A stretch of 64,000 nt of DNA from Candidatus Parcubacteria bacterium (lineage in GTDB: Bacteria > Patescibacteriota > Minisyncoccia > Phycocordibacterales > PALSA-1337). This document shows positions 32,018-62,270 of this stretch, piece by piece. The position numbers were made by a program, and so were the translations under genes. The DNA lies in contig JAQBQT010000011.1 of the NCBI GenBank assembly GCA_028286835.1, positions 5,246 to 69,245 of the forward strand, written 5' to 3'. The notes below the pieces were generated by a model. The model was not told the DNA's origin and searched no databases. It was given only the letters and a program-made list of their open reading frames with translations. Position 1 is the first letter of the stretch. Every line of letters starts with the position of its first letter.

Positions 32018-33094
32018 TTATAGCACCGGCTCCCCTTTTCGCTTGCGCTGGAAAAGCGCTTTTTCAAGGGTGTATTTGTCATATCCATGGGCGAAGAGCG
32101 CCATATTCACGCCGAACAATATGAGATGCGGCCAGACTGTTTCCCCGAAGAAGAGGAGCGAGATGGTGATGAAGAACGTGAAGAAGAGCGCTGCAAAACG
32201 GATCTCGAAGCCAGTCGCAAAGCAGATGCCGATAAGGGCTTCGATGATGAAGGCGCCGAGCACGAGGAAAAGGGGCGTGAAATGGAAATAATTCGTCAAA
32301 TGATAATCATTCACGGTCTGGAGCGCCAGATTGCTGTGCAGGAATTTGGCATAGAATGACGCGAAGAAAAGGGCCGTACCAAAAAGCACCCGGAGTATGA
32401 GGAAGCTGTACCGCTCGGCCGAGCGCGCGAGCCTGCCGAACGCGCGGTCCAGGGCGCGCAATTCCGGAACTGCCCCGTCTAGGGACCATCGTCCTCCGCC
32501 GAGGATGAGGAAAAGGACTGCTTCACCCAGATAATTCGCGTAGGTGAGCATGTAGGTTCCGTATGTGCTCGCGGCGAACGTGAATACAGCCAGCATATAG
32601 AGGGCCATGAATCGCGTCAGGAATCCAAGGACGATGAGCGCCCCGGCGATCATGAGCGAGATGCTCACGGCTGATGCGAACCCTTCGGCGAAGAGAGAGT
32701 GTATCTGAAGTTCGGGCCCGAAGAACGAGCCGAAATACCCCGATGCGAAAACCGAAAGGCCGAATGTCACGCGGGCAATGATGGGCGCATATTTTTTGAG
32801 CCTAATGAGGAATGGATCGAATACTTTCTCAAAGAGGCGCGAGACGGAAATTGAAAGCACGACCAGCGCGACGACGAGGGTGAGCGCGCCATAACTGAGG
32901 AATTTCAGTTCCTGTCCGGGAATGGCCCCGAATGGATTCGGCGACGGGGCCGTGATAGCCGTACTAACCTCTGGCGATGTAAGAACGTACACCTCATGAG
33001 CAGATGCCACGGATGCATGGCTTCCGAAACCGACGAAGCCCATCGAGGCTGTAGCCAGGACTATCGCTCCAAAAAAAGCTGTTAGATTCTTCAT
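32018..33094 (-). CDS. polytopic integral membrane protein of unknown function (DoxX-like repeats suspected)
   Basis: 358 aa with about 8-10 hydrophobic helices and a signal-like N-terminus. Confidence 0.45.
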   Translation of the reverse strand: MKNLTAFFGAIVLATASMGFVGFGSHASVASAHEVYVLTSPEVSTAITAPSPNPFGAIPGQELKFLSYGALTLVVALVVLSISVSRLFEKVFDPFLIRLKKYAPIIARVTFGLSVFASGYFGSFFGPELQIHSLFAEGFASAVSISLMIAGALIVLGFLTRFMALYMLAVFTFAASTYGTYMLTYANYLGEAVLFLILGGGRWSLDGAVPELRALDRAFGRLARSAERYSFLILRVLFGTALFFASFYAKFLHSNLALQTVNDYHLTNYFHFTPLFLVLGAFIIEALIGICFATGFEIRFAALFFTFFITISLLFFGETVWPHLILFGVNMALFAHGYDKYTLEKALFQRKRKGEPVL

Positions 33095-34767
33095 GACGTT
33101 TTGACGATGTGCTCGAATGCGTATTCCAGGGTGCCTCCGACTTTCTTGCCCGGATTGAATATTCCCTTCGGGTCCCAGATCTTCTTGGTCTTCTCGAAGA
33201 GCTCGTAGACCTTGTCGCCGTACTGCATCTTTACGAATGGCGTGCGGATGATGCCGTCGTTGTGCTCGCCCGTGATCGATCCGTTGTAGCTATGCACCAG
33301 CTCGTACACCTTCACCGAAAGGTCGCGGATGATGACGTGCGCTTTTGGGTCAGCCAGATTCATGAGCGGGATGATATGGAAATTGCCGTCGCCCACATGG
33401 CCGGCGATGGTATAGGTGAGGTCGTGCTTGTACGGCTCGAAGATCGCGTAGAGCTTGGGGAGGAACTCCGGCAGGAATTTCGGCAGCACGACGAAGTCGT
33501 CGATGAAGGGCGCCGTGCGCACGCCGTGGATGTGCTGGCGGAGCATATTGAAGCTCTCGCGGCGGATGACCCAGTATTTATGCTCGTCGTTCTCTGTTTT
33601 GGTCACACGGGTACGGACATGGAATTCTTTGAGGGATGTCTGGGCTTCAGTCGCGAGTCTCAAGGCTTCCTCATTCGTGTCGGCGGTGAATTCGGCCATG
33701 AGGACGAGCTTGGGCATGCCTCCTTCGAGGACGGCCATCATTTCCGGAATGAATTCGAGACCGAGAGTAATGATGTTGCCGCCCATCTGATGCATGAGCT
33801 GAGGCAGGAATTTGAAGGCAACCTTGAGCGTCTGGTCGTCATATGACTCGAAGCTCTCGGGATTGTATTTGAGGATATGCGTCGCAGTCTCTCCGAGCTG
33901 ATCGAGGCTCGTGAGGAATGCGACGAGAAGATGCGAGAATTTCTTCGGCTTCACCAGGGCGAATTCTATCTCGGTGATCATGCCGAGCGTTCCCTGCGCG
34001 CCCACGATCATTTTTGTGAGGTCGAACGTGCGCGCGGCTTTGTCGTATACGTTCCAGAGATAGTAGCCACAGGAGTTCTTGGACACGACCGGCTTTGCGG
34101 AGCCTATGAGCTCGGCGTTGTTCATGATGAGGTCCGACATCTTACGGTATATCTCGCCTTCGAACGTCGTGAGGCGCTTCTTATGCTCGAACTCTTCAGC
34201 GGAAAGAGCGGTGAATTCATATTCATTGCCGTCGGCTCATACCATCTTGAGGCGTCGGACGTAGCGCTCGGTCTTGCCGTAGGTCAGCGTCTTCTCGCCG
34301 CCGGAATTGTTGGCTGCGATGCCGCCCACAGTACATAGCTCGCGCGACGCCGGATAGCTCGGGAATATCTGGCCACCCTTCTCCATGGTGGCCTTATCGA
34401 AGTCACGGAAGTAGACGCCTGGCTGGGTTACGGCGTAGCCAGAGATCTCGACGCCTTTTATCGGCGGCTGCGGCTTCTCAACGACTTCTTTGATCTGCGT
34501 GAAATATTTCAGGAATGAGACGACAATAGAGTCCGTGAGCGGCCCGCCCGACATGTCAGTGCCGGCCGAGCGCGCGGTTATATGAACGCCTGGATGGTCG
34601 GATGCGTACTTCACAAGCTTCTTCACATCCTCGACATTTTTTGGATGGACGACCGCCTGAGGACGAACTTCAAAGAGGCTTGCGTCATGGCTTGCTGCCG
34701 TGAGCGCGGCGTCCGTCGTCTCCACATCGCCAGAAATGAGCGCGGCGAGTTCCTGAGGGTTTATCAT
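33091..34767 (-). pseudogene. FAD-linked oxidase (GlcD/D-lactate dehydrogenase family) whose reading frame is broken by a single in-frame TGA at 34237-34239
   Basis: The track ORFs 34237..34767 (FAD_binding_4-like) and 33091..34140 (FAD-oxidase C-terminal domain) are in the same frame. Read-through gives ..YGKTERYVRRLKMV*ADGNEYEF.., and the stop falls where family members carry a hydrophobic residue (the ..VVLADG.. position). Confidence 0.65.
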
Positions 34768-34844
34768 GGATATATTATACCCTACTGATGGCTCTGGGTT
34801 GAAGCATAAAAAAACCGACCTCCGATGGGGCCGGTTGAGGGTAA

Positions 34845-35078
34845 CTATCTACGCAGGGTCTTTTTTGCCAAAACAAAATGGCGTTCGGGTGTAAGCTCCA
34901 ACTCATTCAATTCGAGGCGCTGCCACATGCGCTCAAGTGATTCAAATCGGGAAAGATTATGCCTCTTACCCTCCGCAATTATCTCGTCAGGGCTATTTTT
35001 TCCTGCGCGTATCAAATCGTCTACTGCTGCGTCAAATGCGGCTATAGCAGAAAATGAGTCAGCTGGTTGTTCATTCAT
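34845..35078 (-). CDS. small hypothetical protein (77 aa, predicted helical)
   Basis: ORF with an AT-rich 195-bp upstream region. No family recognised; may not be real. Confidence 0.3.
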   Translation of the reverse strand: MNEQPADSFSAIAAFDAAVDDLIRAGKNSPDEIIAEGKRHNLSRFESLERMWQRLELNELELTPERHFVLAKKTLRR

Positions 35079-35371
35079 GAAATGTCCTTTGTTGGGTTCG
35101 GAATGACTATAGCAGGACAGTTAAAAATGCACAAAACAGGGCGACTTCTCAGACAAAACTCTTTCATTTTGGTTCAGAAAATTCATGTACATTTTACCTG
35201 AGGCGTGTCATAAAAATAGCAATTAATAGAGCCGTGATATGCCAAACTTGACCACAGTATTATACAATTCATGTCAATGAAATTTGTGGATCTGAGCGAA
35301 AGCCTTTTGCCTCAAGCATGTCAGGCCTTCTGAACCTTCCCTGAATCTTAAAAAGAAAAACCACCCTCTCC

Positions 35372-35749
35372 CTACGCCCCGCTCCTGTCGCGCATACGCA
35401 TCCCGCGCACAAAATACGAGCTCTTCACATTGCGACCGATATCCCACATGAGCCAGCCGCCGGCAGCCATAGCAACCACGACGGCGCCTTCCACAACAAC
35501 GGATGTATTCAAAAAAGCGCCCATGAGATAGGCGGCCTCTGCGGCGATACCGGGCACGTTCGACAGATTCTGGATGACGTTCGGAATGGAAACCATGAAT
35601 ACGGCAGTGACGCAACACGACATAAAAATGACAATCTTGAAGGTCTCGGAGCCGAGAGTGCGCTTAACGAAAAAAACCATCCAGACGCGGCGCATGACGT
35701 CCCGGCTGAGCTGGCTCTGATATTCGTATTGATTCAGCGATTGATTCAT
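35372..35749 (-). CDS. putative anti-sigma factor / membrane protein downstream of the ECF sigma gene
   Basis: 125 aa with two to three hydrophobic helices. Starts 5 nt after the sigma gene stop. The overlapping track ORF 35274..35618 is likely spurious. Confidence 0.4.
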   Translation of the reverse strand: MNQSLNQYEYQSQLSRDVMRRVWMVFFVKRTLGSETFKIVIFMSCCVTAVFMVSIPNVIQNLSNVPGIAAEAAYLMGAFLNTSVVVEGAVVVAMAAGGWLMWDIGRNVKSSYFVRGMRMRDRSGA

Positions 35750-35753
35750 TGGT

Positions 35754-36452
35754 TTAACTTTTTGATACCCCCTCTCCTGATTCCGCGGGCGCGAACTCCA
35801 GATTCATCTTCTTGAGCTCCTTCTTGGCGCGGTATATGCGCTGGCGCACCACCTCGTTCGAAACCCCTTCCCTGCGGGCGATCTCCTTCTGGGCCACTCC
35901 CTCGATGAAGTAGAGCCTGACCACACGCCTCAGGAATATCGGCAGCTTCGAAACCAAGCTCATGACATAGTCCGACGTCAGCCGTTTCTCCATCGCATCG
36001 AGCCCCGCCTTGTCCGGAATGATCTCGGCGAACTCAGGCTCGGCCTCGAACGAAACCGTCTGGTGCCGCTCGCGCTTGGTATGGGCCGTATAGCACTGGT
36101 TGACCAGTATCTTATACGCCCAGGAGGAAAAAGACGCTCCCTCCTGTTTCTTGAATTTATGCGAAGCGATGTAAATGCGCACGAACGTTTCCTGGACTGC
36201 GTCATAGGCTGCGTCACGGTCCCGCAAAATAGCGATAGCCTTGCGCATAAAGAGCCGCTCATACCGGCGCACGATCTCCTCGAAAAGAGCCGGGCGGCCC
36301 ACCGAAGCTTTCAGCAATTCCGCATCCCCCAGGGCTTGGAGGCCCAGATCGGCAACGGAAGCATTGAGCTCTAACGTGTGCGTCTTCACAGTACCCTTTA
36401 TAACTCCTATCGAAGCAAAAATGTTACGGGGATGGAATCGTTCCATATGCAT
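35754..36452 (-). CDS. ECF-type sigma-70 family RNA polymerase sigma factor
   Basis: Region 2 (YDAVQETFVRIYIASHKF..FSSWAYKILVNQ) and region 4 (LYFIEGVAQKEIARREGVSNEVVRQRIYRAKKEL). Start chosen at the ATG at 36452 or 36446 (MHMERF / MERF); a TATACT -10 lies immediately upstream. The track start at 36515 is further upstream. Confidence 0.85.
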   Translation of the reverse strand: MHMERFHPRNIFASIGVIKGTVKTHTLELNASVADLGLQALGDAELLKASVGRPALFEEIVRRYERLFMRKAIAILRDRDAAYDAVQETFVRIYIASHKFKKQEGASFSSWAYKILVNQCYTAHTKRERHQTVSFEAEPEFAEIIPDKAGLDAMEKRLTSDYVMSLVSKLPIFLRRVVRLYFIEGVAQKEIARREGVSNEVVRQRIYRAKKELKKMNLEFAPAESGEGVSKS

Positions 36453-36546
36453 ATAAGTATACACCTGCCAGCAGAATGCAAAAAGCCGGATATTTTCCGG
36501 CTTTTGTGCGTGCATTCAGGCGAAGGCCGCCTGAGTTATCCGAAAT

Positions 36547-36948
36547 TTACCAAGAGAGAGCGTACATCCACGGAAGCGGAACGGCCAAGAGCATGAGAAG
36601 CGCTGCTGCGAGGGCGATATCCTTCCAGAAGTGGATATTCTCCGACATGACTGCATTCGGCTCCGTCTCCTTCCAGTATGCGTGCATCTTGAATGCGGCG
36701 CCGAGAAGGAAGATGACGAGACAGAGGATGCCCAAACGAACCCAGATGCCGAGAAGCAGCGTGATGCCGCCAATGGCGAGAAGGACGCCCGTGCCAATGA
36801 CCGCGAACTTGGCGGTACCGACGGACTTGTAGCCGGCCTTGGCCTGCGTGTAGCCCACAAGCCCTGCTGACTTGAAGAGATGCTGATACGCGGCATGGAG
36901 CCAGTACAATGCGAAAACGATGCGTCCGACGAGGAATAAGACTGTCAT
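36547..36948 (-). CDS. DoxX family membrane protein
   Basis: 133 aa with four TM helices and a DoxX-like pattern. Confidence 0.7.
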   Translation of the reverse strand: MTVLFLVGRIVFALYWLHAAYQHLFKSAGLVGYTQAKAGYKSVGTAKFAVIGTGVLLAIGGITLLLGIWVRLGILCLVIFLLGAAFKMHAYWKETEPNAVMSENIHFWKDIALAAALLMLLAVPLPWMYALSW

Positions 36949-37000
36949 ATGTGGTATATGGTATTAAATCAACCTTTTATAAAACCGTGGGTACTATAGT

Positions 37001-38881
37001 CTATTTCTTCCCCGCTCTCAAGGCATTGCCAATCGGAATAAAGTCTGTCAGAAAATTATACGTGGCTGCGCCGGCCGGACCGAGGGGCGACATGAATCCC
37101 GGCAGGCCGAATGCGACCAGCGCCAAGCCAATGAGATTCGTCAGCGCCCAGATGGCGAAGTTCTGCTTCATAACTCCGGTCACACGACGGGCGATCGACA
37201 TGACTTCGGGCAGACGGCCAAGATTGTCCTTCATGATGGTGACATCTGCGGCTTCTATCGCCGCATCCGCGCCGATGCCACCCATTGCTATCGAAACATC
37301 CGCGAGGGCAAGCGACGCTGCGTCATTCACGCCATCGCCGATGTAGCCCACGATGGCTGGCGCATGCTCGCGCTCGAAGCGGCGCACGAACTCGAGCTTG
37401 GTCTCAGGAGTCATATTGGCATGGAAATGCGTGATGCCGAGCTCGCCGGCAACAGCCGCCGCGGCATGCTCATTATCGCCGGTGAGCATGTGCCATTCCT
37501 TCACGCCATAGCGCTTGGTCTCGGCGATGATCTCCTTGGCATGCGGCCGCAGCTCGTCCATATAGGAGATGAGACCGGCGAGCCTTCCATTCACGGACAG
37601 CACGGCGATGCCCCGGCCAGCGTCCTTTTCGAGGACGATGTCGCGCTTGGCTTCTTCGGGGATATGGATCTTCTCCTTTTCCATGAATGAGGGGCGGCCC
37701 AGGAGCATGGTCTCCATGCCGTGACTGAACCTCACGCCCTGTCCGGACACTTCCTCAAGCTCATGCGGAGCGTGGGTCGCAGCTTTCTGGGCTATGCCAT
37801 ATTCGGCGATGGCTCTCGATACTGCATGCTTGGATTCGGATGCGCCCATGAGGGCGAGCTCGAGGACCTTGTGTGTCGAAAAATCTCCGTACGCCCTCAC
37901 ATCCACGACCTTCGGCATGCCTTTCGTGAGCGTGCCGGTCTTGTCAGTGAGGACATAGCGCAGCTTGGAGAGCTGTTCGAAGGCTGCGGACCCTTTGACG
38001 ATCACGCCCCGCTTGGCGGCGCGCGCGATGGCCGAAGTGAATGCGAGAGGAATGGCAACGGCGATGTCATCCGCGCACACGACAAGAAGAACGGCCAGAA
38101 TCTCTCGCGAAGAAAGGCCTACGAGATACATGACGACAGCTGCGACCAACGACAAGAATATGTACCACTGCGTGAAGCGATCCGCGGCGCGCTCAGCTTT
38201 GTTTTTGGCCCGGCTTGCCTCCTCGACAAGGGCGATCATGCGCGCGAGGGTGGTGTCTGCACCCACACGATCCGTCTTCACCACAATGGAACCGGATTCG
38301 TTGACCGTGGCCGTTGAGACTTTATCGCCAGGCTTCTTGGATACGAGGTCGCTCTCGCCTGTGAGCGAGGATTCATTCAGGTCCGCGCCGCCTGAAACAA
38401 CCGTACCATCGACAGGCACCCGATCGCCGGCTTCGACGATGACAAGGTCGCCTGGACGCACCGCGCTTATATGGACATCCTTCACTGTTTCGCCGATCTT
38501 GAGCCGTACATTCTCGACATGATATTTCATCAAGCTCTGGATGGTGCGCTTGGCCTTGGCCGATGTGATCTCCTCGAATATCCGCGCGAATGCGAGCATG
38601 AGAGTGATGAAAGCGGCCGACTTCCATTCCTGTGCAAGAAGCGAGAAGCCGAGAGCAATGGAAGCCAGGAGATCGACGGATAGCTGACGCCCTATGAGCG
38701 ACCTCACAGCGCTCAGGGCGACGGGTATGAGGCCCAGGAATGACAAAGCCGCCAGGATGATGTTGGCGGCAGGTGTGGCAGCGAAGAAATCGACTGCCAA
38801 AGAAGCGGATGTGAGGACTATGAGAGCGACGTCAAATCCGAAAAATACCTTTTCTTCAAGGGAGGAGGCTGACGTGTTCAT
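37001..38881 (-). CDS. P-type ATPase, heavy-metal (P1B)-like core; lacks an N-terminal metal-binding domain and has an atypical TM6 motif
   Basis: DKTGTLT phosphorylation site, TGES in the actuator region, GDGVNDAASLALADVSIAMG hinge, and an HP-like SKHAVSRAI. Where P1B pumps carry CPC, this protein reads VVCADDIAVAIP. Confidence 0.85.
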   Translation of the reverse strand: MNTSASSLEEKVFFGFDVALIVLTSASLAVDFFAATPAANIILAALSFLGLIPVALSAVRSLIGRQLSVDLLASIALGFSLLAQEWKSAAFITLMLAFARIFEEITSAKAKRTIQSLMKYHVENVRLKIGETVKDVHISAVRPGDLVIVEAGDRVPVDGTVVSGGADLNESSLTGESDLVSKKPGDKVSTATVNESGSIVVKTDRVGADTTLARMIALVEEASRAKNKAERAADRFTQWYIFLSLVAAVVMYLVGLSSREILAVLLVVCADDIAVAIPLAFTSAIARAAKRGVIVKGSAAFEQLSKLRYVLTDKTGTLTKGMPKVVDVRAYGDFSTHKVLELALMGASESKHAVSRAIAEYGIAQKAATHAPHELEEVSGQGVRFSHGMETMLLGRPSFMEKEKIHIPEEAKRDIVLEKDAGRGIAVLSVNGRLAGLISYMDELRPHAKEIIAETKRYGVKEWHMLTGDNEHAAAAVAGELGITHFHANMTPETKLEFVRRFEREHAPAIVGYIGDGVNDAASLALADVSIAMGGIGADAAIEAADVTIMKDNLGRLPEVMSIARRVTGVMKQNFAIWALTNLIGLALVAFGLPGFMSPLGPAGAATYNFLTDFIPIGNALRAGKK

Positions 38882-40387: not shown

Positions 40388-41692
40388 TTACAGCTTCGTG
40401 ATATCCCTCGGCGACACGAGTTCGAATGCCCATTCAGCGGCGATGCGGATGCGCTTGCGCCACGAAGCGAACTTGGAAAGATAGACCGTGCGCCAGAGCC
40501 ACCACGTGAATCGGCCGGCAAGCTTCATAGAGAATATCTCGCCGATGGCAAACCACTGACCCACCGACACCATGCTGCCCGGCGAATTATAATGAAAATC
40601 CTTGAGAGGCTTTCCCGCTATGGCGGCGATTATGTTCTTAGCTACCCTTCCCGATTGGGATTGAGCCACCTGAGCGAGCATCGGCAATGGCCGAGTCTTG
40701 CTGGAGTCCTTGGCGAAATCGCGGGCATCGACATACGCAGCGGCATCGCCGAGCACGAATATGCGATCGCTGCCGAGGAGGCGGAAATTGCCGTCGACCG
40801 CGAGGCGACCGCCGGTCAGGGTCGGCTTGAGGTCTTCGAAATGCGGGATGATCGCCTTCACGCCCGCAGTCCATACGATCATCGAGGCGGGAATGGTCTC
40901 GCCGGATGCGAGCGTGAGCCCGGTCCGGGTCACTGCGCTCACGACAGTGCTGGATCTGACCGTGACCCCATTCTTGGTCAGGCGGTCCTGAGCGGCAGTG
41001 CGGAGGGACGGCTTGAACATCTCGAGCAATTCCTTGCTTGCATTGACGAGGGTGAGAGACGGCTCTTCAGGAGAGCATTTGCGCGGATCTTCGGCGCTGC
41101 AGTGGCTGGCGCCATAATAGCGGCCGACCAGGCCCGACATGAATTCAGACAGCTCTGCGGCGAGCTCGACTCCGGTAGCGCCGCCTCCGACGACGACGAA
41201 CGAGAGGAGCGCTTTGCGGTCATCGGCATTCTCGGTGAGGACTGCGCGTTCAAAAGTGTCGATGATGCGATTGCGTATGGCGGTTGCATCGGCGAGGCTC
41301 TTCAGGGGCAATGTGAATTCCGGAGCGCCTGGAATGCCATAATAGTTCGTCTCTGCGCCGAGGGCTGCGACGAGATAATCATAGCGGAGGATATGCACCT
41401 GGCCGTTCTCGCGGACCGCCACTGTCCGCTCGGCCGCGTTGATGCCATCGACGCTTCCCTGCACGATCCGGATGCCAGTATGCACGAAGACTTCACGGAG
41501 AGGCTCCGCGACATTCCTCGGGCTGAGGCCTCCCGTCGCCACTTCATGAAGGAGCGGCGTAAAAAGGAAATAATTGGTGCGATTGACGATGGTGACATCT
41601 ATCTCGCCGCGCTTGACGCGTGCCCTGAGTTTCTTGGCGACATTGGTTCCGCCGAATCCGGCTCCGAGGATGACAATGTGAGGACGAAGCAT
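40388..41692 (-). CDS. ndh: type II NADH dehydrogenase (NDH-2) / FAD-dependent pyridine nucleotide-disulfide oxidoreductase
   Basis: N-terminal GAGFGG dinucleotide-binding motif, a second GGGATGVE motif, and a C-terminal membrane-anchoring region. Confidence 0.85.
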   Translation of the reverse strand: MLRPHIVILGAGFGGTNVAKKLRARVKRGEIDVTIVNRTNYFLFTPLLHEVATGGLSPRNVAEPLREVFVHTGIRIVQGSVDGINAAERTVAVRENGQVHILRYDYLVAALGAETNYYGIPGAPEFTLPLKSLADATAIRNRIIDTFERAVLTENADDRKALLSFVVVGGGATGVELAAELSEFMSGLVGRYYGASHCSAEDPRKCSPEEPSLTLVNASKELLEMFKPSLRTAAQDRLTKNGVTVRSSTVVSAVTRTGLTLASGETIPASMIVWTAGVKAIIPHFEDLKPTLTGGRLAVDGNFRLLGSDRIFVLGDAAAYVDARDFAKDSSKTRPLPMLAQVAQSQSGRVAKNIIAAIAGKPLKDFHYNSPGSMVSVGQWFAIGEIFSMKLAGRFTWWLWRTVYLSKFASWRKRIRIAAEWAFELVSPRDITKL

Positions 41693-41707: not shown

Positions 41708-42454
41708 CTACACGCCGGCAAAATGTATGGCGACGTAAAGGGCTCCTGCGCCGAGCAGGGTCATGAAAGTGGTCAGAAACTTAGGGTGCGCATGATGGCT
41801 TTCGGGAATGAGGTCGGTCGCGCCGATGTACAGGAAGAAGCCGGCGAACAATGCCAGAATGGCGGAGAGGACGTTCTCTGGAAGCGTGAAGAGAAGCGTC
41901 GAAGCGGCACCGAGAACGGGCGCAAAGGCATCCGTGAGGAGCCAGTGGAATGCGCGCGTCTTGTTTCCCTTGTTCTTCAGTATGAGATTGACGGTATTGA
42001 TGCCGTCGGAAAAATCGTGGGTAAGGACAGCCGCCGTGACAATGGCTCCGACAGCCGGAGACACTTGGAAAGCGAGGCCGATCGCCACGCCATCAAGGAA
42101 GCTGTGAAGCGACAGGCTCCCCGCTCCGAGCATGCCCCTACGGATGCCATGCGACTCGGTCGAAGAAAGATCATGCTCATGTCCTTCTTCATGCGTATGA
42201 GCGTGCAGGAATATGAGGCGGTCCAGAATGAGATAGAGGAAGAAGCCAACTGCGACCATGGCCATGGTAGTACCTGCTGTATAGAACTTCCAGCCCAGAT
42301 CCAACGCCTCAGGAATGAGATCGAAGAACGCGACGGCGATGACTGCGCCAGCGCTGAAGCCAAGAATGAGATGCAGCTTATCCCTGAATCGCAAGGCAAA
42401 GAGCCCTCCGACGAGCGTGGCGACAAATGTAGCGATGGCAATGAGTATGATCAT
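41708..42454 (-). CDS. ZIP family metal transporter (ZupT-like)
   Basis: Eight TM helices, with the HSFLDGVAIG and THDFSDG signature regions and a His-rich loop (HAHTHEEGHEHD). Confidence 0.85.
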   Translation of the reverse strand: MIILIAIATFVATLVGGLFALRFRDKLHLILGFSAGAVIAVAFFDLIPEALDLGWKFYTAGTTMAMVAVGFFLYLILDRLIFLHAHTHEEGHEHDLSSTESHGIRRGMLGAGSLSLHSFLDGVAIGLAFQVSPAVGAIVTAAVLTHDFSDGINTVNLILKNKGNKTRAFHWLLTDAFAPVLGAASTLLFTLPENVLSAILALFAGFFLYIGATDLIPESHHAHPKFLTTFMTLLGAGALYVAIHFAGV

Positions 42455-43167
42455 GATTGGTATTTCTTTTTAAGCTCAAGAGCGCTTTTCACGTGCATGT
42501 CTTTAGTGACTGCTCCTGACATATTGGAAGAATGAACACGATGCAGATGCGAGATGAAGTCACATATATGCGGCATATGACCCTTAAGCAGGACCCTAAC
42601 GCACAAATCGAGATCTTCCCCCATTTTAACCGATGGATCGAACATGCCGACATTGATGAATAAGCTCTTCTTTATAAAAATATTTTGCTGAATGTAGTGC
42701 TCACCCTTGAAGATGGAATCGAGCATGTTCCCTATGTCCTTAAAATTCCATGAATAGTAATCATCGCCGATGATATATCTCAGATTTTCATCTACATGCA
42801 AGAAATCGGCGACAAACCATCCCGCACCAGGAAACTCCTTGGCTTTCGCAGCGAATTTATATAATGTGCGCTGAAGGAGGATATCATCGCTGTCCAAGAA
42901 GAACAAATACTCTCCCCTTGCCTCTTTTACAGCCTCATTCCTGGCTTTTGATTGGCCCTGATTATTATCATTGCGAATATAACGGATATTCGGATGCTGT
43001 TCTTTTTGGAAAAGCTCAGGAGTCCCGTCTGTAGATCCATCGTCATATATGATGTACTCCCACGATACATCCTCATACGGAATGAGTAGGCTTTTTTTAA
43101 CGCTTTCAACCGTCTCCTGGAGAAGGTGTTTTCTATTATATGTCGGCGTTATAATTGATATCTTCAT
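42451..43167 (-). CDS. family 2 glycosyltransferase
   Basis: ISIITPTYNR, YDDGSTDGT, and the DSDD motif (the GT-A DxD). The ATG at 43167 was chosen over the track TTG at 43191. Confidence 0.8.
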   Translation of the reverse strand: MKISIITPTYNRKHLLQETVESVKKSLLIPYEDVSWEYIIYDDGSTDGTPELFQKEQHPNIRYIRNDNNQGQSKARNEAVKEARGEYLFFLDSDDILLQRTLYKFAAKAKEFPGAGWFVADFLHVDENLRYIIGDDYYSWNFKDIGNMLDSIFKGEHYIQQNIFIKKSLFINVGMFDPSVKMGEDLDLCVRVLLKGHMPHICDFISHLHRVHSSNMSGAVTKDMHVKSALELKKKYQS

Positions 43168-45885: not shown

Positions 45886-46929
45886 CTACGATTTTGAAGC
45901 ATCCACGAATGCACGCACTCCCTGAGAAGTAAGGGTATAGGTGCGGACAAAGGAATCATCGACATGGGCATATAATATCCCTTCGTTTTTACTTGTCTCG
46001 ATGAACTGGCTGGCGAATGTTATCGTCTTGGCTTCTGTGTCCTGAATGAACGGTTCCGGCGAAACCCAGTCGATTTTGCCGTGTTCGTAGTCATATATAA
46101 AGAGGCCAACTGAGAACATGCCGTACTTCGTCTCGCCTCCCTCTTTTGTGTTAGCTTCACGGCCATTAATGATGCCTAAGGCCTTGCCTTCCCCCGCATC
46201 ATAAAATTCGCGGGAAAAGAGCGGGCCTGGCGATGCGTGGCCGCTGATCCATGGTATGCCCTGTTCCTTTGGATGAAATACGGTTTCGCCAAATTTCCAT
46301 GGCTTGCCCATGTCTTCCACAATAGCGATTCGTACGGTTGAATATTTGTCTTCACCATCGACTATCCGGGATTCAACGAGATTGAGCCTGACTCCATTCT
46401 TGTTTATCGGAGCGATGGATATTTCCTTTGCGCCCGGCATGCCATGTACATCCATTTCTGGAGACAGGGCGGGCACAGTCATCTCGAGATGCGCCAAGTC
46501 CTTCCCCACCGCATGTCCGAGATATATGAGAGATTCTTTTGGTTTTATATTTTTACGAATGAACGGCATCGTAAAATAGAGGTGTGTGAGCCCGGTGAAG
46601 GAATCAATGAAAATATCCGGATCTTCAAGACCTATAAAATCCCGATCATCACTTGTAAGACCGGCGATAACTGCTGCTTCATTTTTTATTGGAATTCTTT
46701 CTCCGATTTTAAAGCTTTCAAGAGAGCTTCCCGTCACAAAGCGAAGCTCGCTGCGATCAGTAAATCCTTTTATTCCCACATTTCCTTCACGACTAGTAAT
46801 ACAGCGCAGGATGCCCTTCTTGTAGCCTGAAGACGGATCGAGTGCGATCGCCATCACATGCGTATACCGAGCGTCTGTTTCTATGACCTTGCCTTTATGC
46901 TCGATATACAAAGTCGGCTTTTTCATCAT
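45886..46929 (-). CDS. hypothetical protein, possible beta-propeller glycosidase/phosphorylase (GH130-like)
   Basis: 347 aa. Weak resemblance only. Confidence 0.35.
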   Translation of the reverse strand: MMKKPTLYIEHKGKVIETDARYTHVMAIALDPSSGYKKGILRCITSREGNVGIKGFTDRSELRFVTGSSLESFKIGERIPIKNEAAVIAGLTSDDRDFIGLEDPDIFIDSFTGLTHLYFTMPFIRKNIKPKESLIYLGHAVGKDLAHLEMTVPALSPEMDVHGMPGAKEISIAPINKNGVRLNLVESRIVDGEDKYSTVRIAIVEDMGKPWKFGETVFHPKEQGIPWISGHASPGPLFSREFYDAGEGKALGIINGREANTKEGGETKYGMFSVGLFIYDYEHGKIDWVSPEPFIQDTEAKTITFASQFIETSKNEGILYAHVDDSFVRTYTLTSQGVRAFVDASKS

Positions 46930-53974: not shown

Positions 53975-54084
53975 GACAATATAGTAGCATTTTTGCTGAT
54001 TGACCCGCATCATTTCCCATGATACTTTTGAGCCATCCAACAGCACCTTTTAAACCTCAACCGCACATAATCACAGGGGTATGT

Positions 54085-54396
54085 ATGAAAACACTGACCG
54101 ATCGCGAACGCCAGGGAGGGCGCGAGCGGCGAACAGCTGAATGCGCTCCCCTGCTGAAACAGCTTCATAAATGCAAGGGCCTGGCAAAGCTCAAGGAGGA
54201 GATAACCCTGTCAGTCCATGACCCTCTCAATGACGGCACCGAACCGTGGTCGAGCCTCCATGTGACCCGCCAAGGCTTGGAGATACAGAAGGAAGGGATC
54301 AGATCGCGTGTGACTGATTTCGAGTATTGCGCCCAGCTCTTCGAGTTTCTGAATGAGCACGAGATCAGTATGCTGATCGATGATCTGAGCTCCTGA
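54085..54396 (+). CDS. hypothetical small protein (103 aa)
   Basis: ORF with an ATG at 54085, followed immediately by a strong rho-independent terminator. No family recognised. Confidence 0.45.
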   Translation: MKTLTDRERQGGRERRTAECAPLLKQLHKCKGLAKLKEEITLSVHDPLNDGTEPWSSLHVTRQGLEIQKEGIRSRVTDFEYCAQLFEFLNEHEISMLIDDLSS

Positions 54397-54411
54397 GATA
54401 TCATGCGTGCC

Positions 54412-54441
54412 GCCGGTCCTTCCGAAAGGGCCGGCTTTTTT
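54412..54441 (+). terminator. rho-independent terminator
   Basis: GCCGGTCCTTCCGAAAGGGCCGGC followed by TTTTTT. Confidence 0.7.
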
Positions 54442-54471
54442 ATTCAGATGAGCTCGGATTTATCGGACAGC

Positions 54472-54873
54472 TTACGCAATTACCTGAGTGCAGTGGGAAC
54501 AGCGCTTGGCCTGAATGGGGATCTCGCTCATGCATTCAGGGCATTTCTTGGTCGTCGGATCGGCGGGAGGCTGCCTGCGCGAGCGCGACACAAGGACGTT
54601 TATCGGCTTCACCACGAAGAAGAAGACGGTGGAGGCGACGAGAACGAACGAGATGAGCGCATTCAGGAGATGGCCGTATGCGAACGTGCTTCCATGCACA
54701 GTAAAAACAAGATGGCTCAGATCGGGGATATTAGCGACGGTCGATATAAAAGGCGTCAGAAGGTCGGCTACGAGGGCATTCACGACCGAGGTGAATGCCG
54801 CACCGACGACGACACCGACCGCAAGGTCCACCACATTGCCTCGGAGCAGGAATTGTTTGAAGTCTTTGAACAT
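54472..54873 (-). CDS. mscL: large-conductance mechanosensitive channel MscL with a C-terminal zinc-ribbon extension
   Basis: MFKDFKQFLLRGNVVDLAVGVVVGAAFTSVVNALV is the MscL signature. C-terminal CPEC..CSHC. The ATG at 54873 was chosen; the track ORF has a 60-codon upstream extension. Confidence 0.85.
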   Translation of the reverse strand: MFKDFKQFLLRGNVVDLAVGVVVGAAFTSVVNALVADLLTPFISTVANIPDLSHLVFTVHGSTFAYGHLLNALISFVLVASTVFFFVVKPINVLVSRSRRQPPADPTTKKCPECMSEIPIQAKRCSHCTQVIA

Positions 54874-54943
54874 GGCGATATTATAAGCAAAAGACGTGCA
54901 CAGGACAACCTGTGCACGTGTTGCATGAGGCTTATTTGGACAA

Positions 54944-54971
54944 TAAAAAGACCGTCTCAAGGACGGTCTTA
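54944..54971 (-). terminator. rho-independent terminator after the HD-domain gene
   Basis: AAGACCGTC-TCAAG-GACGGTCTT, with a T-run on the minus strand. Confidence 0.6.
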
Positions 54972-54974
54972 TAC

Positions 54975-55535
54975 TCACAACCCAAAACGTATCGCGGCTT
55001 TCGCATATTCGGCTTCGAAAAGCGCATCGAGCACGGGACTTATTCCTTTGCATTCATCCGCAATCAGCTTGGCACCTCGAATGTAATTAGCCAATTCGCC
55101 TTCCTTTTCCGCCCATTTTTTGGAAGGATCAACAGTAAGCGACCTTACATTCGAAGTCTGATCGGCAATCTTGATTCTTTTCACCGAGTTACTCTTGCCC
55201 CTAACACGAACAGATTGTCGGCGTTTTCGTTCTGCTGTTGGTAGATCCGTGAACTCGGGTGGATCGGTGAGACCATCAACATTGGCCGCAACCTGATTCT
55301 CAAACCTAGCTTCAATTTCAGCAAGTGTTATCTTCGTATCCTCAACCATGTCATGAAGCCATGCTGAAGCGATTTCGATATCGCTGCCACCTGAGGCCCA
55401 GACAAGATCTGCAACCTCTTGTAGGTGTTCAGTCTGTTGTAGCCGACGACCTGATATCATTTCCCAAAAAATATCTTTATGCTCGCACAGCGCAAAAACT
55501 TTTGCCCGAATAATGAGATTATTATGATTTGTCAT
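54975..55535 (-). CDS. HD-domain (p)ppGpp-hydrolase-like protein, RelA/SpoT-type HD (small alarmone hydrolase, Mesh1-like)
   Basis: HLQEVADLV..SGGSDIEIASAWLHDMVEDT..LAEIEARFENQVAANVDGLT matches the SpoT-type HD motif. ~186 aa with no synthetase domain. The ATG at 55535 was chosen. The region is AT-richer than its surroundings. Confidence 0.65.
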   Translation of the reverse strand: MTNHNNLIIRAKVFALCEHKDIFWEMISGRRLQQTEHLQEVADLVWASGGSDIEIASAWLHDMVEDTKITLAEIEARFENQVAANVDGLTDPPEFTDLPTAERKRRQSVRVRGKSNSVKRIKIADQTSNVRSLTVDPSKKWAEKEGELANYIRGAKLIADECKGISPVLDALFEAEYAKAAIRFGL

Positions 55536-55642
55536 ATCTGGGCTGATACTAACAGAGATCGCTATTGAGTCAATATTAAAATTATAGCCAAATTTGCTAG
55601 TCGTATGGTTCGACGTTTGAAGCACTTCCAACAAATTGCTAC

Positions 55643-56158
55643 CTAACTAGCCCTGCTTAAAATATCATTAATAAATTCGATTTTCCTGCGATAATATTCT
55701 TTGACTGTCACACCATTGCTTTCTTCCTTTAATATTCTATAACGCTCCAGTTCCTCGGGATGTTTCCATAGATATGCCTCAAAAATCTTGCCGCGAATAT
55801 GATTAGGGTGATCCTCATCCGATATCTTCAGATCGATCTTTTTCCCTTCCACTTCTGTTTTGAATCTGACTCGATCAGGATATTGCGACTTCATAGGACC
55901 AAACTCCTTTTCTAGCTTGGGGATATAATCGGCAAACATTGCCTTATTGGCTACGATCGTAACATCGATTTCATCCTGTCCTGATATGCCAAAACTGCTC
56001 GCTCCGCAATGCTCTACAACCGCTTCTGGACCCAAAACTTTCAATATCCTCTCTTTGATCGAACCGTATAATCTTTCTGTCCTTGGATCGTACGGAACAA
56101 TTGATATAGCTTTATCGGAAAGAGTGCTCAAAAATTCTTCTTGTTCTTTGGTGATCAT
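55643..56158 (-). CDS. GrpB family protein (nucleotidyltransferase fold, UPF0157)
   Basis: HCGASSFGISGQDEIDV and FEAYLWKHPEELERYRILK correspond to the GrpB motifs hGSTAVPGL..IDI and FRDYLRxHPE..Y..LK. The ATG at 56158 was chosen. Confidence 0.6.
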   Translation of the reverse strand: MITKEQEEFLSTLSDKAISIVPYDPRTERLYGSIKERILKVLGPEAVVEHCGASSFGISGQDEIDVTIVANKAMFADYIPKLEKEFGPMKSQYPDRVRFKTEVEGKKIDLKISDEDHPNHIRGKIFEAYLWKHPEELERYRILKEESNGVTVKEYYRRKIEFINDILSRAS

Positions 56159-60774: not shown

Positions 60775-61662
60775 TTATAGCATTTTTTCTGCCTCTATGA
60801 ACTCATCCAATTCGCCGTCGAGCACCTTATCCACCTGAGAAGTCTCCACATCAGTGCGGTGATCCTTGACCATCTTGTAGGGATGGAGGACGTATGAGCG
60901 TATCTGGCTTCCCCATTCGATCGAGGCCGTCGACGAGATCTGCATGCCTTTCTCCTTGGCGATGCGCTCGTCTTCGAGGCGCTTCCAGAGCTTTGCGCGA
61001 AGGATGTCCATCGCCTTCTCGCGATTCTGGGCCTGCGAGCGCTCCGATGTGACATGAATGGATATGCCGGAAGGCTTATGGAGGAGGCGCACAGCCGTCT
61101 CGCGCTTATTCACGTTCTGGCCTCCGGGACCGCCTGACTTGGCGATCGAGATCTCAAGATCGCTTTCAGGAATGGCCAGGTCGGCTGCGGATGTCTTCTC
61201 GAATCTCGGGATCACTTCGACGAGCGAGAATGAGGTCTGGCGCTTGCTGTTGGAATTGAACGGCGAGATGCGCACGAGGCGATGGACGCCCGACTCGTTC
61301 TTGAGCGTGCCGTATGCATTCTTGCCCGTGACCTCCACGGTTATGTTGCGGTAGCCCCCGTGATCATTCTCGTTGGCATGGACGACGGACCAGCCCCACC
61401 CCTTTGCGTCCGCATACTTGCGGTACATCTTGAGGAGCATCGCCGAGAAGTCTTCCGCGTCGTCCCCGCCCGCACCTGAAAGAAGCGAGAGGATCGCGTC
61501 CCCTTTGTCGTACTTCCCGATGCCTTCCAGGTCGGATTTGAGGTCCTGCAGCTCCTTGACGCCCGCCTGCGCCTTGGCCTTGTCTGCCCAGAAATCCCCC
61601 GAAGCCATTGCTGCTTCAAGAGCGGCGATTTTCTCCTGTATTTTTTCCCTTGTATCTGACAT
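60775..61662 (-). CDS. prfB: peptide chain release factor 2, encoded as a single uninterrupted ORF with a short N-terminal domain
   Basis: SPF tripeptide motif ([16 protein letters not shown]) and the GGQ motif ([17 protein letters not shown]). 295 aa, compared with ~365 aa in E. coli. No CTT-TGA-C shift site or short upstream 0-frame ORF was found. Confidence 0.85.
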
Positions 61663-61673
61663 TGATTTACATC

Positions 61674-62138
61674 TTACCCCATCCGCCTCAAAACAGAAAA
61701 GTTAAGTTTACGCGCTTCCTGAGATCGTATGCTTATAGCCCTATTCCTCCTTCCTTTTCCTTTATTCAAACCAGCATAGGTCAAAGTTAAGGCATCGCAG
61801 TTTGGGCAAATCAAACGAAGATTACTTTCTAAATTATTACGCCAATTTCCATCCATATGATCTGCAACCAGAGGGACCTGGCCTGTCTTAGGATGAACTT
61901 CGCACCAGCCGCATATGCAGCACTTATTGCCATACTTCTTCCTCAAATATTTCTTAACGTATTTAGAGACTATGCCAAGACTTTGTAATCCCGTCTTCTC
62001 TCCCTTTTTCCACTGCTCGATATAAATACTGTACTGATATTCCAATTGGCAATTATTGCTGCAGTATTTACGTCTAGAATGGGAGTTCGGTTTTTGGCAA
62101 TTCAGGCATTTATCTTTGATGGATTTGGATATAGCCAT
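61674..62138 (-). CDS. HNH endonuclease (zinc-binding HNH nuclease, homing-endonuclease-like)
   Basis: CLNCQ..C..C and [36 protein letters not shown] carry the H-N-H plus CxxC motifs. The ATG at 62138 was chosen because the track ORF extends into the tRNA-Thr gene. The stop lies 11 nt upstream of the prfB ATG. Confidence 0.75.
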
Positions 62139-62197
62139 AAGACATCTTATTATTAAAGAATAATCGAGACTGTATATTTCACTTTTCCTCCCTTCTG

Positions 62198-62270
62198 AGC
62201 CGAAGGCCGGGATTGAACCGGCGACCCCATCTTTACGAAAGATGTGCTCTACCAACTGAGCTACTTCGGC
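62198..62270 (-). tRNA. tRNA-Thr (anticodon CGU)
   Basis: Acceptor GCCGAAG/CTTCGGC, D-arm GCTC-AGTTGGTA-GAGC, anticodon arm CATCT-TTCGTAA-AGATG, T-arm GCCGG-TTCAATC-CCGGC. Confidence 0.88.

Follow-up and report, generated by a model that had tools for sequence, protein, structure and literature searches.

A split FAD-linked oxidase gene in a Parcubacteria genome

We examined a stretch of 64,000 nucleotides (nt; hereafter the window) from a bacterium deposited as 'Candidatus Parcubacteria bacterium' (assembly GCA_028286835.1, contig JAQBQT010000011.1, positions 5,246 to 69,245), which carries on its minus strand an FAD-linked oxidase gene interrupted by a single in-frame TGA codon. The whole gene (33091-34767, minus strand; 558 codons and a stop) can be described as that of a GlcD/YdiJ/D-lactate dehydrogenase (D-LDH)-like oxidase or 2-hydroxyacid dehydrogenase on the basis of Pfam, NCBIfam, solved relatives and orthologs. 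Translation of the frame from 34767 down to 33094 yields 558 codons with only one internal stop, the TGA at 34237-34239 (minus strand), which occupies codon 177 in the context ...RRLKMV*ADGNEYEF.... Apart from this codon the frame contains no frameshifts or stops, and the terminal stop is the TGA at 33091-33093. The disputed base of the internal stop is position 34237, which is A on the gene strand and T on the plus strand. The deposited NCBI contig has this TGA, and the gene is annotated as two coding sequences: the N-terminal 176 codons (34240-34767, minus strand) form MDB5238878.1 (176 amino acids (aa), 'putative oxidoreductase'), and the 349-codon open reading frame (ORF) that begins at the first ATG past the stop (33091-34140, minus strand) forms MDB5238877.1 (349 aa, 'FAD-binding oxidoreductase'). 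Both lie on a 129,191-nt contig of a metagenome-assembled genome (MAG).

A reading made from the sequence alone (the sequence-only reading) had treated the two halves as one gene split by one in-frame TGA, and translation, Pfam and full-length orthologs all bear this out. The Pfam domain FAD_binding_4 matches residues 36-183 (E 3.9e-27, 95 bits) and thus runs across the stop, and FAD-oxidase_C matches residues 278-541 (E 3.7e-40, 139 bits), both above the gathering cut-off. The database search returned thousands of unsplit orthologs of about 541-590 aa, with 100% of the length aligned and a best identity of 87%; the named ones among the best are from Paceibacteria, Parcubacteria and Patescibacteria MAGs. 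Because unsplit orthologs span the full length at up to 87% identity and FAD_binding_4 crosses the stop, the two ORF halves are best read as one gene and not as two chance ORFs.

The predicted product is a VAO/PCMH-type flavoenzyme related to GlcD, D-LDH and the FAD half of YdiJ, and the oxidase is common across Paceibacteria. Its top NCBIfam matches are to the N-terminal part of YdiJ (237 bits, cut-off 1350) and to GlcD (185 bits, cut-off 568); since every equivalog score is far under its cut-off, no substrate was assigned. Solved relatives include a glycolate oxidase (9qgz) and mouse D-LDH (8jdc). The order FAD_binding_4 then FAD-oxidase_C is shared with the GlcD/D-LDH (LDHD)/YdiJ-D2HGDH group, but the oxidase has no counterpart of the Fe-S/CCG C-terminal half of YdiJ and exceeds GlcD by about 90 aa in length; it also differs from the group in its linkage, in Paceibacteria, to a DoxX-domain membrane protein.

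Residue and codon at the TGA position in orthologs

The sequence-only reading had proposed that orthologs be aligned to see which residue occupies the site, and the column of codon 177 proved to be Cys in most close orthologs. Among the 120 best orthologs the residue is Cys in 81, Leu in 34, Ala in three and Thr in two, and an alignment of 23 orthologs gives a similar picture (Cys 20, Leu 2, Thr 1). At this column the distant relatives with solved structures have Val (9qgz) or Leu (8jdc). The hydrophobic residue that had been expected at the stop is therefore found in the wider family and not in the close orthologs. To read the codon itself, DNA loci were chosen by the local context KMV-x-[AS]DG.E[YH]EF, which gave three GTDB genome loci and 26 metagenome contigs. 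All 29 context-matched loci have a Cys codon at the site (TGT in 16, TGC in 13), and a version of the DNA context pattern with TGA fixed at the site had no matches in the metagenome collection. Because all 29 loci read TGT or TGC, codon 177 was ancestrally TGY, and the window is one transversion away from it. This overturns the earlier suggestion of a change from TTA or TGG to TGA. A scan of genome contigs found closest relatives of at most 80% identity.

Two database proteins, P0128 and P0123 (380-381 aa, starting with 'MVLADG' or 'MILADG'), were considered as further split genes and rejected as contig-edge calls. P0128 (L035, 42-1187) is truncated, its contig ending 41 nt from where the call starts. 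The contig with P0123 measures 1,217 nt, and this protein, too, is very probably an edge call. Both begin at a conserved Met two residues before the site and resemble the C-terminal half in the window.

We also asked whether the protein has begun to decay. The oxidase departs from the consensus at only one of 231 columns of at least 95% conservation, and at none of those past the stop; intact orthologs show on average 2.75 departures from these columns (n=120). The oxidase shows no decay by this comparison and looks fully functional. Because the protein is as conserved as its intact orthologs, the TGA must be either very recent in origin or not real. An established, decaying pseudogene is not what the gene resembles, with its one stop, no frameshift and no relaxed constraint, and no other disrupted genes were found in the window.

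An independent assembly of the same strain

Exact look-ups of neighboring gene products led to four contigs of the Logan collection, all of them from the SRA run SRR13312974 and none from any other sample: L033 (3,395 nt), L034 (2,330 nt), L036 (1,538 nt) and L037 (1,321 nt). In the contig index, DoxX, diacylglycerol kinase, a 203-aa protein and release factor 2 (RF2) are each found on one contig, all in SRR13312974, which suggests that the MAG was built from the reads of this run. Exact look-up of both oxidase halves and of the downstream gene in the same index gave no match. The four contigs are 100.000% identical to the window over 3382+2330+1538+1321 = 8,571 nt, with 0 mismatches. The part matching L033 (SRR13312974_1210138) covers 34238-37619, and identity stops one base before 34237. 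L033 departs from the window precisely at 34237, where the stop codon has its third base, and in 8,572 compared bases there is no other disagreement. It reads ...CTCAAGATGGTATGC and then AGATCGGAAGAG, where the contig ends. The last genomic base of L033 is C, which makes codon 177 TGC (Cys). The tail AGATCGGAAGAG we take to be the start of the Illumina TruSeq adapter, reached by read-through.

Seven of the eight Logan contig ends are plain genomic sequence, and the eighth, an end of L033, carries adapter. The stretch 3383-3395 of L033 closes with 12 nt of adapter, so adapter read-through survives into Logan contigs; it also enters Prodigal gene calls, as the cut 181-aa gene of L033 ends in ...MVCRSEE. 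This cut product was not found in the protein collection. No adapter sequence was found in the window, and a simple adapter chimera was thereby ruled out as the source of the TGA.

According to the pipeline description in the Logan paper, reads are streamed from the SRA straight into k-mer counting, 31-mers seen once are dropped, and the graph is then simplified with Minia3; this description mentions no trimming step (PMC12424806). Two points follow. Because 31-mers seen once are dropped, at least two reads of the run carry ...ATGGTATGC (TGC). In addition, no path with A and at least 2x support left the upstream flank: had there been one, clipping would have removed the short adapter tip, or the contig would be one base shorter.

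Origin of the in-frame TGA

We conclude that TGC exists in the DNA of this strain and that TGA is not the fixed state of the strain. The TGC is considered real because the sole mismatch hits the very base that makes the stop and restores the ancestral codon, for which the chance would be about 1 in 10^4 if it were an artefact. The most likely reading, which we consider somewhat probable, is that the TGA at codon 177 is a miscall in the consensus of the deposited assembly, where coverage of the position was thin or ambiguous. On this account, codon 177 of the organism would be TGC (Cys), the deposited contig would carry a C-to-A error at 34237 (G-to-T on the plus strand), and the A would have been miscalled where very few reads bridge the position. 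A normal enzyme of 558 aa would most likely be made without any recoding. A miscall is preferred because the A path lacks 2x support in the sole run holding the strain, because there is no other sign of heterogeneity, and because G>T on the plus strand is a common type of library damage or error. C>A/G>T changes are the typical oxidative-damage artefact of Illumina libraries. It is at just this base, at a contig end with adapter, that the strain's independent assembly disagrees, as an artefact would lead one to expect. With errors of consensus and joins at low coverage, as known from short-read MAGs, the case shares a single-base discrepancy at a contig break and the G>T direction on the plus strand; candidate causes are oxidative damage, a read end of low quality or one lone bridging read.

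The earlier reading had listed a sequencing error among its options, and the Logan contig with TGC supports that listing. It had also held that raw reads with a sense codon would point to an assembly error. In substance this is what the comparison of the two assemblies provides.

Several observations weigh against a miscall. Since the C directly precedes the adapter as the final base of the insert, PCR duplicates of one fragment or a fragment-end artefact are conceivable; such an artefact would have to recreate the ancestral Cys codon exactly at the nonsense site. The adapter junction lies directly beside the variable base, which is not fully explained. The account also leans on the origin of the MAG from SRR13312974, which we infer, and the poor support of the A is deduced from the 2x k-mer filter of Logan and not from reads. 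Finally, a real nonsense allele present alongside TGC would give identical data.

This last alternative is possible, if rather doubtful. It holds that a real TGC-to-TGA allele segregates with an intact one, as in the recent loss of a dispensable oxidase, and that the MAG consensus took TGA. The contrast between TGC in the strain's reads and TGA in the deposited contig agrees with it, as does the undecayed protein, as expected of a very young mutation; if coverage were split between two alleles, this would also explain why the Logan graph, with k=31 and the stated 2x threshold, breaks exactly at this base. Against it, a majority A in SRR13312974 should have carried the Logan contig on instead of leaving a short adapter tip, and the absence of a second difference in 8,571 nt gives no sign of strain heterogeneity.

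It is improbable that the gene is a fixed, very recent nonsense pseudogene, with TGA in all cells and the C in the Logan contig produced as a fragment-end or PCR artefact. The TGA and the two annotated coding sequences of the deposited contig, together with the position of the C as terminal insert base beside the adapter, are compatible with such a pseudogene. However, the artefact would have to hit the sole disagreement in 8,572 bases and restore the ancestral Cys there, 31-mers with C were seen at least twice, and the gene shows no relaxed constraint. The stop is also not present in all sequences of the strain, as L033 reads TGC.

Selenocysteine and the genetic code

A TGA standing opposite Cys is what selenoproteins usually show, and a real test for selenocysteine (Sec) was needed for this reason. 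We therefore weighed the explanation that the TGA is decoded and the enzyme still made at full length, whether by Sec insertion, by programmed or leaky read-through (near-cognate tRNA-Cys or tRNA-Trp) or through a reassigned code. In its favor stand the usual Sec/Cys pairing, with Cys opposite the TGA in 81 of the 120 orthologs, and the fact that UGA is the leakiest of the stop codons. The same feature, an in-frame UGA at a mostly-Cys position of close homologs, is shared with bacterial selenoprotein genes, which have Cys homologs along with a SECIS (Sec insertion sequence) hairpin read by SelB.

No SECIS-like fold was found in the 76 nt around and after the UGA (-14.4 kcal/mol, z = 0.61; 137 of 200 shuffles fold as well). 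For the codon plus 60 nt downstream (63 nt), the minimum free energy is -11.5 kcal/mol, which is no departure from the 29 Cys-coding orthologs (-11.7 +/- 4.1); 11 of these 29 fold the segment at least as well as the window does. A search of the window with Rfam returned six tRNAs and nothing else. The SECIS check proposed in the sequence-only reading, where none had been seen, thus gave the same answer by fold statistics and by Rfam. ARAGORN found no tRNA-Sec in the 64-kb window, and there were no matches to Sel proteins among its scanned ORFs. A literature search on Sec in Patescibacteria or the candidate phyla radiation (CPR) returned nothing useful, and neither did one on the run SRR13312974. 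Moreover, because Leu, Ala or Thr replaces Cys in 39 of the 120 orthologs and Val or Leu stands there in the solved relatives, the Cys of codon 177 does not appear to be a catalytic or conserved redox Cys. In contrast to bacterial selenoprotein genes, the gene in the window has no SECIS, its UGA is absent from the other orthologs, its Cys can be replaced by Leu, and TGC occurs in reads of the strain. Sec was rejected on these grounds. The earlier view that Sec is unlikely therefore holds in its conclusion (no SECIS, no TGA in 29 loci, Leu tolerated), and its argument from a hydrophobic residue does not.

We also checked whether UGA has another meaning in this genome. The gene for RF2, prfB (60775-61662, minus strand), has SPF and GGQ motifs and scores 351 bits with TIGR00020 (prfB) against 227 bits for prfA. 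The presence of this gene shows that UGA serves for termination in this genome. TGA terminates the oxidase, RNase R (46926) and a GT2 glycosyltransferase gene (42451). At the oxidase, the C-terminus of 22 of 23 aligned orthologs falls within two residues of the same position (...VKTS), and that of P0091 is one residue earlier; since the natural terminator of the oxidase is the TGA at the overlap with the next gene (ATGA), TGA is read as a stop in this genome. Full-length genes in the window include rpoB, rpoC, pyrG, rpoD, aspS and glgA. The standard code, argued earlier from the first three, is confirmed by these genes and by RF2. The ORFs of at least 200 aa in the window comprise 15,263 codons, which are stop-free by construction. 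No second in-frame TGA joining two coding segments of one gene was found in the window. Other same-frame ORF pairs with TGA between them (at 42451 on the minus strand, at 54394 on the plus strand, and several shadow ORFs) were examined and are not split genes, being either the true GT2 stop followed by non-coding-like sequence or non-genes. Reassignment of UGA (codes 4/25) was rejected, as RF2 is present, TGA terminates genes and no other gene is interrupted. Code 25 is known from Gracilibacteria/Absconditabacteria. The window shares with such lineages the CPR/Patescibacteria background and an in-frame UGA, but differs from them by its RF2, by UGA as terminator and by the lack of UGA within the other coding sequences examined.

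Taken with the absence of TGA from all 29 orthologous loci and from the metagenome pattern matches, and with the TGC in reads of the same strain, these results make a decoded TGA very improbable. Least credible of all is the version in which the TGA allele is real and decoded as Sec with a non-canonical signal, or by efficient read-through with tRNA-Cys or tRNA-Trp, which would give a functional CPR oxidase recoded at codon 177.

Some further features of termination were observed. RF2 is only 295 aa long, and its TIGR00020 match begins at profile position 111, with most of domain 1 missing; its gene has neither an upstream in-frame extension nor the +1 frameshift site with in-frame UGA found in many bacterial prfB genes. 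Despite a GC content of about 54%, TGA is the rarest stop among the 38 ORFs of at least 200 aa (four, against 18 with TAA and 16 with TAG). At least two genuine TGA stops lie within ATGA overlaps with the next gene (33091-33094 and 46926-46929). The same-frame ORFs at 54019-54396 and 54403-55086, with TGA between them, have translations that do not look like protein, and positions 54000-56000 have the lowest G+C of the window (0.477).

Genomic neighborhood of the oxidase gene

Downstream of the oxidase lies a gene (32018-33094, minus strand) for a 358-aa polytopic membrane protein with a DoxX domain (Pfam DoxX, residues 232-316). The two genes overlap at 33091-33094 (minus strand), where the sequence ATGA holds both the TGA terminator of the oxidase and the ATG of the downstream gene. 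They are probably co-transcribed, and the overlap predicts that the oxidase is translationally coupled to the membrane protein. In L019 the oxidase is directly followed by an ortholog of the membrane protein, and in L035 by a gene of similar size. In relatives, the order NDH-2, P-type ATPase, DoxX, extracytoplasmic function (ECF) sigma factor with anti-sigma factor, oxidase and DoxX-domain membrane protein is kept.

The oxidase is thus flanked by two DoxX-family membrane proteins (32018-33094 and 36547-36948, both on the minus strand). Along with NDH-2 (40388-41692) and the heavy-metal P-type ATPase at 37001-38881, they make up a neighborhood that is found again in contigs of related Paceibacteria. 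Beside NDH-2 lies a 270-aa ORF (41723-42535, plus strand) that has no Pfam match and looks like a shadow ORF, yet is conserved in the same place in relatives, with tblastn matches in L001 (E 3e-30), L003 and L022. At their 3' ends, this ORF and the convergent GT2 glycosyltransferase gene overlap by about 85 nt. Farther along, a 193-aa Cys-rich ORF (61674-62255, minus strand; CxxC ... CPNCD) without a Pfam match is located between prfB and a tRNA cluster at 62.2-63.7 kb (Thr, Thr, Asp, Met, Met), and may encode an HNH-like nuclease.

Implications

Most probably the organism itself does not have the in-frame TGA, and the biological weight of the split oxidase is small. A TGA opposite Cys resembles a selenoprotein candidate, and screens for Sec/Cys pairs would pick such cases up. 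An independent public assembly of the same run, such as that of Logan, can take the place of a read pile-up and bring single-base errors in MAGs to light. If the TGA is a miscall, the records MDB5238878.1 and MDB5238877.1 hold the two parts of a single 558-aa enzyme and ought to be merged. If it is instead a real minor allele, it would be an ordinary case of a gene caught during its inactivation in a reduced genome.

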